Origin: a virus
Virus genome (UHGV): UHGV-1826220
Length of the DNA: 15,821 nucleotides
Reading direction: 5' to 3' (one strand)
The first letter of the stretch is position 1. Every line of letters begins with the position of its first letter. The notes under the pieces are model-generated. The model was given only the letters and a program-made list of their open reading frames with translations, made no database searches and was not told the origin of the DNA. Shown here one piece after another: positions 4,627 to 15,537 of the stretch. A program made the position numbers and the translations under genes.

Positions 4627-5367
4627 TTAACTGTCGGTGACGGTGATTTCTGCAACCACAGCAAGTTCACCATTACCGGATACAACCGGAATGTTGACCT
4701 TGCCTGCAGCAACACCTTTCACGGTGATGGTCATACCACTGACCGACACGGTGGCTTTTGTTTTATCCGCAGACACCGCACGGAAGCTCTTGTCGGTTGC
4801 GCCTTCCGGCTGGAATGCCACGGTCAGCGTGGTGCTCTGCCCTTTCACCACCGAAGTGCTGGCAGGCGTCACGGTCATGCCGGTTGCCGCTGTTACCGTG
4901 CTGCGATCTTCTGCCATCGACGGACGTCCCACATTGGTGACCTTCACCGTGCGGGTAATCACTTCCTTCGCCGTCACCGCCTTACCGATACTGCTGACCC
5001 AGCCACGGAACACATCGACCGTGCCGTTCGGGAAGCGGATTTTATAGGCACGGGTATCACCTTCATTAAACCACGCCAGCAGCGCCTGCTGCCCCTGCTC
5101 TCCGGGCATCCACGCCAGCGTGAAGCTGGTATCTCCGGCAGATTTCTGCCCCTGCCCGGTCGCAGTCCAGTCTGCATCTTCATCATCGAGATAGCTGTCG
5201 TCATAGGACTCAGCGGTCAGTTCGCCGGGCGTCAGGTCTTTAACTTTTGCCAGACGCGACCAGTCAACGTCTGAAAGCGGGTTCGCATAAGGGTCACCGC
5301 TCCCCTTATAAACCCACAGGGTGGTCCCGGCACCTTTCACCGGCATTGTAGGATTTGGTACAGGCAT
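4627..5367 (-). CDS. V: Major tail tube protein gpV (246 aa) with C-terminal Ig-like domain
   Basis: Track ORF 4627..5397 (256 aa) trimmed to the internal ATG at 5367-5365 ([14 protein letters not shown]...), which is preceded by GAGGA 5 nt upstream and gives the lambda length of 246 aa. Confidence 0.92.
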
Positions 5368-5374
5368 AGCGTCC

Positions 5375-5770
5375 TCACATTTCATAGGTAATGACATAAG
5401 TCAGATCGGCTGAACTCCACAGGCCCGCATCATCGTCGCGCCGGTAGTCATAGCCACTGGCCACCATACTGGTGATCAAATCTGACAGTGCCGGGATATC
5501 GCTCATCACCGGATAAATCCGGGACTCCATCCACGCATCCAGCTCTGAATCCGGCACCTGAGCAGGCAGGAAAACTTCGATATGCAGCTCCGCCTGCCAG
5601 GTATCGCTGTCCAGCTCTTCGCCCGTGTATTCAGCGCCGGTGAGATAAACGGCAATTGCCGGAAAATCTTCCTCATCAAAAACAGCGGGGCGACCATCAA
5701 AAAGCGTCGCCCCGGTGTCATGCTTCTCCAGTGCATCCAGTACGGCTGCACGGAGTTCAGTATGTTTCAT
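5375..5770 (-). CDS. U: Tail terminator protein gpU (131 aa)
   Basis: Track ORF 5375..5770(-), 131 aa, [37 protein letters not shown]...; ATGA overlap with the Z stop. Confidence 0.93.
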
Positions 5771-9892: not shown

Positions 9893-13573
<3,681 letters not shown>

Positions 13574-13599
<26 letters not shown>

Positions 13600-14119
13600 T
13601 CAGCAACCCCGGTATCAGTTCATCCAGCGCGGCTGCTTTGTTCATGGCTTTGATGATATCCCGTTTCAGGAAATCAACATGTCGGTTTTCCAGTTCCGGA
13701 AAACGCCGCTGCACCGACAGGGGGATCCCGTCGAGAATACTGGCAATTTCACCTGCGATCCGCGACAGCACGAAAGTACAGAATGCGGTTTCCACCACTT
13801 CAGCGGAGTCTCTGGCATTTTTCAGCTCCTGTGCGTCGGCCTGCGCACGCGTAAGTCGATGGCGTTCGTACTCAATAGTCCCTGGCTGGAGATCTGTCTC
13901 GCTGGCCTGCCGCAGTTCTTCAACTTCCCGGCGCAGCTTTTCGTTCTCAATTTCAGCATCCCTTTCGGCATACCATCTTATAACGGCGGCAGAGTCATAA
14001 AGCACCTCATTACCCTTGCCACCGCCTCGCAGAACGGGCATTCCCTGTTCCTGCCAGTTCTGAATGGTACGGATACTCGCACCGAAAATGTCAGCCAGCT
14101 GCTTTTTGTTGACTTCCAT
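13574..14119 (-). CDS. Nu1: Terminase small subunit gpNu1 (181 aa)
   Basis: Track ORF 13574..14119(-), 181 aa, MEVNKKQLADIFGASIRTIQNWQEQGMPVLRGGGKGNEVLYD...; sits immediately next to the cosB R-sites. Confidence 0.95.
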
Positions 14120-14296: not shown

Positions 14297-14308
14297 AGGT
14301 CGCCGCCC
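14297..14308 (-). other. cosN cohesive-end 12-mer (reverse complement of GGGCGGCGACCT); terminase nicking site, phage left and right ends joined here
   Basis: Plus-strand AGGTCGCCGCCC at 14297-14308, flanked by sequence I recall as the lambda left end (cosB side) and right end (cosQ side). Confidence 0.9.
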
Positions 14309-14343
14309 CGTAACCTGTCGGATCGCCGGAAAGGACCCGCAAA
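14309..14343 (-). other. cosQ-containing segment (right-end side of cosN); exact cosQ bounds not resolved
   Basis: CGTAACCTGTCGGATCGCCGGAAAGGACCCGC matches the recalled lambda right-terminal sequence with a few substitutions; cosQ is known to lie within about 30 bp of cosN on this side. Confidence 0.55.
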
Positions 14344-14360
14344 ATGATAATAATTATCAT
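14344..14360. promoter_or_regulatory. Perfect 17-bp palindrome ATGATAATAATTATCAT containing a 7-1-7 Fur-box-like inverted repeat (TGATAAT-A-ATTATCA)
   Basis: Reverse complement is identical except for the central base; matches the Fur 7-1-7 heptamer consensus. Function here is not established. Confidence 0.4.
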
Positions 14361-14507
14361 CTGCATGTCACAACGTGCATCTACGCCATCAAACCACGTC
14401 AAATAATCAATTATGACGCAGGTATCGTATTAATTGATCTGCATCAACTTAACGTAAAAACAACTTCAGACAATACAAATCAGCGACACTGAATACGGGA
14501 CAACCTC

Positions 14508-14741
14508 ATGTCAACGAAGAACAGAACCCGCAGAACAACAACCCGCAACATCCGCTTTCCTAACCAAATGATTGAACAAATTAACATCGCTCTTGATCAA
14601 AAAGGGTCCGGGAATTTCTCAGCCTGGGTCATTGAAGCCTGCCGCCGGAGACTGTGCTCAGAAAAAAGAGTTTCTTCTGAAGCAAACAAAGAAAAGAGTG
14701 ACATTACTGAATTGCTCAGAAAACAGGTCAGACCAGATTGA
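14508..14741 (+). CDS. Hypothetical small basic protein (77 aa), ribbon-helix-helix-like DNA-binding fold predicted
   Basis: Track ORF 14508..14741(+). Basic Thr/Arg-rich N-terminal arm, then a strand / helix / G-x-N turn / helix pattern (RNIRFPNQ, MIEQINIALDQ, KGSGN, FSAWVIEACRRRL) typical of Arc/MetJ/CopG proteins. No clear Shine-Dalgarno; coding status uncertain. Confidence 0.4.
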   Translation: MSTKNRTRRTTTRNIRFPNQMIEQINIALDQKGSGNFSAWVIEACRRRLCSEKRVSSEANKEKSDITELLRKQVRPD

Positions 14742-14798
14742 AGCAATTTAGATAATCGTGCAGACTACGCCCCCTCATATCACATGGAAGGTTTATCT

Positions 14799-15209
14799 AT
14801 GGATCAGGTAGTCATTTTTAAACAAATATTTGATAAAGTTCGAAACGATTTAAACTATCAATGGTTTTATTCTGAGCTAAAACGTCACAATGTCTCACAT
14901 TACATTTACTATTTAGCCACAGAGAATGTTCATATTGTATTAAAAAATGATAATACAGTGTTATTAAAGGGCCTAAAAAACATTGTGTCTGTCAAATTTT
15001 CAAAGGATAGGCATCTTATAGAAACGACCTCTAATAAGCTGAAATCCAGAGAGATCACATTTCAGGAATACAGAAGAAACCTTGCTAAAGCAGGAGTTTT
15101 TCGGTGGGTTACAAATATCCACGAACAAAAAAGATATTACTATACCTTTGATAATTCATTACTATTTACTGAAAGCATCCAGAAAACTACACAGATCTTA
15201 CCACGCTAA
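14799..15209 (+). CDS. YbcV-like (DUF1398) prophage protein, 136 aa from the second ATG (track ORF begins at 14784)
   Basis: Track ORF 14784..15209(+). The ATG at 14799 is preceded by GGAAGG 7 nt upstream, whereas 14784 has no Shine-Dalgarno. C-terminal motif ...[36 protein letters not shown]... resembles the YbcV/DUF1398 family as recalled. Strongly AT-rich codon usage unlike the structural genes. Confidence 0.6.
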
Positions 15210-15360: not shown

Positions 15361-15537
15361 TCAGATTAAATTAATCTTGACATCATAGCTTTCAAGACCC
15401 GTCATTTTTTCCCGTGCGGTAAACTGAATACTGGTAACTTCTTTCCCGGTCTTTTTCTTAAGTTCAATAATTTTTTTTGTTATATATTCAGAAATATCTG
15501 CTTCTGCTTTTGTTTTTAAGTTTTCAATATTCATCAT
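15361..15537 (-). CDS. Hypothetical small protein (58 aa; 57 aa if the second ATG at 15534 is used), charged and Lys-rich
   Basis: Own translation of the reverse complement: MMNIENLKTKAEADISEYITKKIIELKKKTGKEVTSIQFTAREKMTGLESYDVKINLI, stop at 15363-15361. AAGAGGAA Shine-Dalgarno directly upstream; a TATAAT hexamer on the minus strand at 15573-15578. Below the 60-aa cutoff of the ORF track. Confidence 0.5.
   Translation of the reverse strand: MMNIENLKTKAEADISEYITKKIIELKKKTGKEVTSIQFTAREKMTGLESYDVKINLI

Follow-up and report, generated by a model that had tools for sequence, protein, structure and literature searches.

The prophage gene ynfO, next to cos in a lambda-type right end, most likely encodes a small ribbon-helix-helix regulator

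The 77-codon open reading frame (ORF) found just inside the right end of a lambda-type prophage segment is the prophage gene ynfO, the orthologue of Escherichia coli K-12 ynfO (Qin prophage, b4533), and is clearly a real gene under purifying selection. Profile comparisons and structural models indicate that the first ~50 residues of its product most likely form an Arc-like ribbon-helix-helix (RHH) domain, and YnfO would most likely act as a sequence-specific and probably self-regulating repressor. As a gene ynfO is not new, being already catalogued in E. coli. What is new here is that the DUF3950 or YlcI/YnfO family is placed, most likely correctly on sequence and model evidence, among the RHH DNA-binding proteins, together with predicted specificity residues and sites. 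This placement provides a plausible and testable function for a family to which none had been assigned, and it makes specific predictions: residues 11, 12 and 14, together with the invariant R16, would determine specificity, and the sites would be 14-bp palindromes. Lambda is the best-studied phage, yet its reference annotation lacks its ynfO homologue. Furthermore, the family points to a likely regulator at the divergent promoter of widespread enterobacterial phage satellites. For the window (the whole stretch of 15,821 nucleotides that was analysed) the consequence is modest, namely a small regulator of ynfO-ydfO that would be expressed in the lysogen, and not a cos-related function.

The prophage gene ynfO and its setting

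The window is a segment of a lambda-type prophage with its head and tail ORFs on the minus strand. The features around ynfO are as follows.

11674 to 13599, minus strand: terminase A (ORF listing)
13574 to 14119, minus strand: Nu1 (ORF listing)
14297 to 14308, minus strand: cosN cohesive-end sequence AGGTCGCCGCCC, the reverse complement of GGGCGGCGACCT (read from the sequence and from the lambda right-end alignment)
14508 to 14741, plus strand: ynfO coding sequence, ATG start, 77 codons and a TGA stop (ORF listing)
14508 to 14657, plus strand: codons 1-50, the conserved domain (homology block, dN/dS, AlphaFold, entropy pattern), with a basic arm (1-12), a predicted beta-strand (13-18, KxIRFP), helix A (19-32), a loop (33-36) and helix B (37-50)
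14658 to 14738, plus strand: codons 51-77, a lineage-specific tail of mixed charge (alignments, full-length AlphaFold model)
14784 to 15209, plus strand: ydfO (DUF1398), 42 nt 3' of ynfO (Pfam PF07166, E=1.7e-46)
15361 to 15537, minus strand: gnsB-like gene, convergent, annotated as addiction-module toxin family

In the alignment, lambda base 48502 corresponds to window position 14309, the start of the lambda-type right end. Since the cohesive end occupies 14297-14308 and the right end begins at 14309, ynfO starts 199 nt inside the right end. The gene runs away from cos, opposite to Nu1, terminase A and the other morphogenesis ORFs, and the ~200 nt from cos to the ATG are nearly invariant across lambda, Qin and the window. 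The original prediction had described a 77-residue ORF in this orientation with no clear Shine-Dalgarno sequence. The ORF listing gives the same coordinates, an ATG start and an identical protein, the orientation agrees with the coordinates of Nu1 and terminase A, and the Shine-Dalgarno sequence is indeed weak in the lambda/Qin lineage (3 of 6 matches to AGGAGG in the window). The prediction had also presented the segment as one normally treated as non-coding. This holds for the lambda records NC_001416 and J02459 only, whereas RefSeq E. coli genomes annotate ynfO or a YlcI/YnfO family protein. The cosN site is context only and is outside ynfO's own unit. On the minus strand of the right-end DNA, a sigma-70-like site, GTGACA-16-TATCAT (14344-14371), reads across cos towards Nu1; its -10 falls within the palindrome ATGATAATAATTATCAT (14344-14360), the lambda counterpart of which is ATGATAATCATTATC. 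This palindrome resembles the Fur-box consensus, GATAATGATAATCATTATC.

The identity of the protein is established by matches to Pfam DUF3950 PF13132 (74.7 bits against a cut-off of 25), to NCBIfam NF041551, YlcI_YnfO_N (35.6 bits against a cut-off of 30), and to phrog_949 (E=9.5e-34). The family motifs NFSAWV and the IRFP strand are present; among 49 diverse members R16, F37 and V41 are invariant, and I15, F17, P18, N36, S38, W40, A44 and C45 nearly so. Over 401 nt, the DNA of this region is 99.5% identical to that of K-12-lineage ynfO, and the two proteins differ by a single residue (D30 in place of E30). The K-12-lineage Qin prophage has the order nohA, ynfO, ydfO, gnsB, with the same neighbours as in the window (Nu1/nohA on one side, ydfO and gnsB on the other). 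In contrast to Qin and to DLP12, which carries YlcI, the window prophage retains full-length terminase and morphogenesis genes. Window DNA 14400-14800 matches 3791 of 5426 complete E. coli genomes, in which the gene is annotated as ynfO, ylcI or 'YlcI/YnfO family protein'. YlcI/YnfO genes are counted among the uncharacterised y-ome genes (PMC11551758), and no functional study of ynfO, ylcI, DUF3950, PF13132, b4533 or b4589 was found in the literature.

Lambda itself carries an intact copy of 64 residues (NC_001416, 48109..48303 complement), which is unannotated in the RefSeq and J02459 records; several newer records of lambda-like phages name it hypothetical protein or YlcI/YnfO family protein. 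The lambda product differs from the window protein at one of the first 49 residues, and similarity ends near codon 50. In the lambda, DLP12 and BP-4795 versions, unrelated sequence stands in place of the window's codons 51-77. Dozens of near-identical lambda right ends were also met in assemblies labelled Streptomyces, Bacillus relatives, Flavobacterium, Pseudomonas, spider and Staphylococcus, many of them on contigs of ~3.5 kb or 48 kb. These copies look like contamination by lambda control or spike-in DNA, which inflates homologue lists and adds noise to them; many 'homologues' returned by the first protein search were noisy lambda copies of this kind, from unrelated assemblies. A scan of viral contigs gave only near-identical E. 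coli prophage copies, which were of no use for divergence tests.

Purifying selection on ynfO

Intact homologues of 50-95 residues were found by a species-level genome scan in ~40 species across the Enterobacterales, in genera that include Salmonella, Citrobacter, Klebsiella, Enterobacter, Serratia, Pectobacterium, Brenneria, Xenorhabdus, Pantoea, Tatumella, Buttiauxella, Leminorella and Rouxiella. A comparison of substitution classes among homologues had been proposed with the original prediction as a check on coding status, and nonsynonymous changes proved the rarer class, with dN/dS of 0.02-0.25 in eight enterobacterial clades (Nei-Gojobori method, pairs with unsaturated dS). Synonymous and nonsynonymous differences number 17 and 5 in Tatumella, 8 and 1 in Salmonella, and 9 and 1 in Pantoea. 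In the comparison with the Stx phage BP-4795, synonymous differences outnumber nonsynonymous ones by 17 to 8 over codons 1-50 (omega 0.088), and 16 of 25 differences fall at third positions. Homology to BP-4795 runs from precisely the ATG to about codon 50, and the DNA before the ATG is unrelated; the BP-4795 copy has a good ribosome-binding site, and the packaging module of that phage differs from that of the window. Length variation and indels in the family are confined to the inter-helix loop. Other relatives also have stronger Shine-Dalgarno sequences (AGGAGG in Klebsiella and in one Pantoea lineage, AAGGAG in Tatumella). No direct evidence of YnfO translation was found.

A predicted ribbon-helix-helix domain

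The reading of the ORF as an RHH regulator, put forward in the original prediction, is supported by several lines of evidence that are individually sub-threshold and converge. A search of the PHROG profiles with 20 diverse family members gave matches to the HicB-like phrog_497 for 8 of them (best E 8e-5), and other members matched three 'Arc-like repressor' PHROGs (best E 7e-4). When the family was aligned to the Arc family with hhalign, the match was co-linear and in the expected register (P=4.5e-4, probability ~30%), a score reached by 0 of 400 column-shuffled controls, and N-I-R-F-P of YnfO was placed on N-L-R-W-P of Arc. Pfam RHH models gave one weak match only (RHH_6, E 0.09, 1 of 20 members), and Arc, PF03869, was matched neither by the window protein at E<=1 nor by the 20 family members at E<=5; we therefore class the protein as RHH-like in its mechanism but keep it out of the Arc family of Pfam. 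Neither the protein on its own nor either of two profiles yielded a significant match among PDB sequences; of the RHH-type proteins, CdbA came closest (E 0.59).

AlphaFold models (single-chain, pLDDT 74 and 76.5) have an extended N-terminus, a helix at 19-32, a four-residue loop and a second helix from 37. This agrees with the segments described earlier, the region of the arm and putative strand being modelled as coil (1-18) and the loop falling at 33-36. Structure prediction had been suggested as a check on the fold, and the best Foldseek matches of the model are almost all RHH or RHH-like domains, with E values of 0.4-5: NikR, the TCP domain, NikA, MazE9, MatP, Arc, ParD and HicB. In the full-length model helix B continues through the tail (helix 37-73, pLDDT ~70-77). 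The tail had been called acidic, which is not borne out by a direct reading of the sequence, as residues 50-77 hold 6 acidic and 7 basic residues.

Variation within the family has an alternating pattern along the predicted strand. Computed over 104 distinct sequences, entropy reaches 2.7, 2.5 and 2.1 bits at the hypervariable positions 11, 12 and 14, and positions 13, 15, 16, 17 and 18 are nearly fixed (0.36, 0.14, 0, 0.16 and 0.29 bits). A beta-strand that turns one side to the DNA would produce such an alternation. Positions 12, 14 and 16, the last of them the invariant arginine, align to Q9, N11 and R13, the base-contacting residues of Arc.

The Arc repressor of phage P22, like Mnt, is a small phage RHH repressor, its strand motif and helix A are in register with those of YnfO, and Arc structures are among the YnfO Foldseek matches. 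The candidate YnfO-type operators, 14-bp palindromes with 5-bp arms and a 4-bp spacer, are unlike the Arc operator, which is 21 bp long, and in the window, unlike the P22 setting, there is no antirepressor gene under control. The RHH DNA-binding domains of AmrZ, NikR (N-terminal domain), PcfF, MazE9 and HicB (C-terminal domain) are also among the closest known systems. These proteins have additional ligand-, toxin- or relaxase-binding parts, whereas YnfO has only a short, lineage-specific charged tail.

Relatives in phage satellites

Many of the homologues outside E. coli are located in integrase-AlpA-AntA-...-primase elements, that is, PICI-like or capsid-forming satellites such as the 16.5-kb 'phage' vB_KppS-Ant, and among Enterobacter cf-PICIs a YlcI/YnfO protein has been recorded in a published survey (PMC13612085). 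The DUF3950 gene is, in the satellite loci examined, on the strand opposite to its flanking genes, and the upstream layout of these loci is constant: two (G)GTG-N6-CAC(C) boxes, the second followed by GTCAA, then ~25 T-rich nt, TAT(A/G)GT, a third box, a ribosome site and the ATG. The only sigma-70-like promoter found by scanning this region is on the opposite strand, TTGACG-17/18-TAT(A/G)GT; box 2 falls within the spacer of this promoter and box 1 covers its -10.

L125-L161 (a subset) and L166-L223: three-box operator-like regions of satellites, for example 4915-4987 in L140 and 4914-4943 in L133

A comparison of 55 non-identical loci shows that the six central bases of box 2 vary together with residues 11-14 of the protein (Mantel r=0.41, p=0.0005) and do not co-vary with the rest of the protein (r=0.08). 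The partial correlation is r=0.29 (p=0.0005) when two linked DNA spacers are controlled for as well as residues 3-10 and the remainder of the protein; linkage may add to this covariation, but control spacers beside or between the boxes co-vary much less. Typical pairings of residues and hexamers are xYKG with TTTAAA, AKKN with TGCGCA, AKKH with TG(C/A)ACC, TTKG with CA(C/T)ATA, and ATKK with CGGCCA. As far as these sequences go, the box types and residues 11-14 look like a set of immunity types. The covariation alone suggests that the DUF3950 protein would repress the satellite operon, in which case it would also shut the divergent replication-operon promoter.

The master repressors of phage satellites, Stl of the SaPIs among them, provide a functional analogy for this gene. 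The satellite DUF3950 gene is a single-gene unit, transcribed away from the DUF4222/primase operon across the three operator-like boxes. Its product is related to Stl neither in sequence nor in fold, and the window copy, unlike Stl's gene, resides in a helper-type lambdoid prophage and not in a satellite.

Annotation of these loci is uneven. In vB_KppS-Ant, an induced element (LR881103; L164, 7364-7537), the DUF3950 gene is unannotated, and a 975-nt minus-strand 'hypothetical protein' is annotated over the gene and its operator region. The equivalent long ORF elsewhere ranges from 63 to 430 residues (for instance 4634..5608, minus strand, in L140) and is probably spurious over most of its length. 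Another satellite homologue, P0188 (L003, 4714-5103), is a fusion of 129 residues in which the DUF3950 domain is followed by a small-terminase-like segment that matches Terminase_2 (Pfam, E 1.7e-6) and phrog_641 (E 1.6e-17). We take this segment to be the N-terminal DNA-binding part of a small terminase subunit; if it does bind DNA, two DNA-binding modules are combined in one protein.

Candidate operator and proposed mechanism

Two features upstream of ynfO are relevant to its possible regulation.

14434 to 14447, no strand assigned: candidate operator TTGATCTGCATCAA (TTGAT-CTGC-ATCAA), a perfect 14-bp palindrome, 74 nt upstream of the ATG
14388 to 14410, plus strand: three (A/G)TCAA half-site-like repeats, starting at 14388, 14397 and 14406, with 9-nt phasing

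The palindrome occurs once in the 15.8-kb window, where 0.01 copies are expected. TTGAT-N4-ATCAA is also present at -76 in two other places, ahead of the DUF3950 gene in Salmonella diarizonae (L123) and in Citrobacter amalonaticus (L153), where the upstream DNA is otherwise unrelated to that of the window, and the 602 kb of loci scanned contain only one further, unrelated match. When four sequences are aligned, no upstream columns other than those of the palindrome arms are invariant; in an O145 prophage, one arm is altered to GTCAA. More generally, of 84 loci 42 carry a perfect 5-N4-5 palindrome no more than 150 nt ahead of the gene, the figure for control windows being 12.7 +/- 3.0, and in Buttiauxella and Leminorella the sequence ATGGT-N4-ACCAT stands at -58 to -62. 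No such palindrome is present upstream of the gene in BP-4795, and GTG..CAC boxes of the satellite type are absent from the window. The shorter repeats read ATCAA at 14388 and 14406 and GTCAA at 14397. ATCAA occurs four times in the 60 nt from 14388 to 14447, against once per ~416 nt window-wide, an enrichment that is weak evidence because the motif was chosen after the fact. A promoter scan detected no sigma-70-like site on the plus strand upstream of ynfO. Among manual candidates, TTGATC-15-TAAAAA is poor and is not claimed as a promoter.

With moderate confidence, we favour the reading that YnfO acts as an RHH dimer which reads a 14-bp palindrome and represses its own ynfO-ydfO unit. If YnfO resembles Arc in this respect, the N-terminal strands of two chains (residues ~12-18) would come together as a two-stranded ribbon and insert into the major groove of DNA. 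Residues 12 and 14 and the invariant Arg16 would then face the bases, with further contacts from the basic, Thr-rich arm (residues 1-11). The likeliest target in the window would be the palindrome TTGATCTGCATCAA upstream of ynfO itself; YnfO bound there would repress the ynfO-ydfO unit, and hence its own synthesis. We infer dimerisation, physical binding to DNA, repression and the genes that would respond.

Probable co-expression with ydfO

Orientation against the late operon is typical of prophage-expressed genes, and because ynfO-ydfO is transcribed against the phage late operon its activity is expected in the lysogen. No terminator-like site was found between ynfO and ydfO, and their co-transcription is probable; 'ynfO, ydfO' are given as an operon in a published data set (PMC12218254). 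The window ydfO product is near-identical to PDB 2HH8, 'hypothetical protein ydfO'. Strong responses of ydfO to ionic-liquid stress (PMC4077768) and to DicC induction (bioRxiv 10.1101/2024.09.21.614188) have been reported, and in K-12 RNA-seq the transcription of ybcW and ylcI overlaps (PMC12288877). The last codons of ynfO (14722-14738) contain AACAGGTCAGACCAGAT, which has been reported as an in-vitro PdhR site (SELEX-chip) at K-12 position 1635002, between ynfO and ydfO (PMC7660256).

Alternative roles

YnfO could instead be an RHH transcription factor with its main targets in trans, be they phage genes, host genes or a co-resident satellite, in which case the palindrome would be a promoter element or just one site among several. 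The gene is retained in BP-4795 and other Stx phages, in which the palindrome is absent and the upstream spacer is only 41 nt long, the predicted dimer-interface core is nearly identical in phage and satellite versions, and Qin-encoded DicC has been reported to bind hundreds of host regions (bioRxiv 10.1101/2024.09.21.614188). Nevertheless, we regard this reading as rather unlikely: palindrome and gene keep a constant spacing in three unrelated contexts, as would most simply be expected of a cis-acting site, and there is no second TTGAT-N4-ATCAA in the 15.8-kb window.

A more speculative view, which we consider quite improbable, is that phage YnfO is a relative of the satellites' repressor, with the same dimerisation core and other DNA-reading residues, and could form mixed dimers or compete with it. 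Were this so, such interactions would switch a satellite on (helper sensing) or hold it off (a phage counter-measure), and residues 11, 12 and 14 with the 14-bp palindromes would define 'immunity types' shared by helper phages and their parasites.

The position of the gene raises the question of a role in DNA packaging, either by binding near cos or by working with the small terminase subunit. The gene does lie between lysis and terminase genes in lambda-type phages and BP-4795, and the satellite homologue P0188 carries a small-terminase-like C-terminal extension. This association with cos and terminase holds in lambdoid phages and fails in satellites and at chromosomal loci: equally selected homologues are found far from either, in the PICI-like regulatory region, in the SPI-5 sopB-pipD spacer and after cyd operons in Pantoea and Rouxiella. 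In addition, transcription against the late operon means that poor expression is expected when packaging occurs, and the palindrome travels with the gene and not with cos. As gene and palindrome occur without cos, we find a packaging role very doubtful.

An RHH antitoxin paired with YdfO (DUF1398) as its toxin is another conceivable role. An RHH gene followed 42 nt on by a same-strand gene is the usual type II layout, the best profile matches include HicB-like antitoxins and the best structural matches MazE9 and ParD, and the neighbouring GnsB is annotated as addiction-module toxin family. The pairing is, however, not conserved. DUF1398 adjoins the gene in the Qin type only, an opposing ORF separates the two genes in lambda, a convergent ybcW-ylcI pair is reported for K-12, no DUF1398 homologue was found in the clustered neighbourhoods of satellite and chromosomal homologues, and a terminator-like hairpin directly follows the gene in the Klebsiella locus L140. 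Moreover, PADLOC returned no defence-system match, and the tail that would bind the toxin is swapped wholesale between lineages. Since no partner gene is conserved, the antitoxin role is highly improbable.

Finally, a chance open frame, conserved through constraint on terminal or cos DNA and not on protein, would fit the nearly invariant 200 nt from cos to the ATG in lambda, Qin and the window, the weak Shine-Dalgarno sequence and the omission from the lambda reference annotation, but we give it practically no credence, because it is excluded by the substitution pattern (synonymous excess and third-position bias) and is further contradicted by intact homologues in ~40 species at loci that share no gene clusters with the window, terminase included, by homology to BP-4795 that begins precisely at the ATG, and by indels restricted to the inter-helix loop.

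Other genomic contexts

In BP-4795 the gene is located between Rz and HNH-TerS-TerL, against the late operon, with a 41-nt upstream spacer; Stx phages other than BP-4795 likewise carry it without the palindrome. In Salmonella enterica diarizonae and arizonae (L123, L124), a DUF3950 gene of 56-58 residues with the TTGAT-N4-ATCAA palindrome lies between sopB/sigD-like and pipD-like ORFs, recognised by eye as SPI-5. In Rouxiella (L122) and Pantoea (L154-L163), two genera, chromosomal DUF3950 genes are directly 3' of, and co-directional with, genes for membrane proteins, judged by eye to be a cytochrome bd oxidase (cydAB-like) or a CydDC-type ABC transporter. In a lambda-cos prophage of E. coli O145:H28 (L224, 1915-2229), a convergent gene for a PerC-family transcriptional regulator adjoins the YlcI/YnfO gene in the place of ydfO, so that the cargo beside ynfO appears to be freely exchanged.
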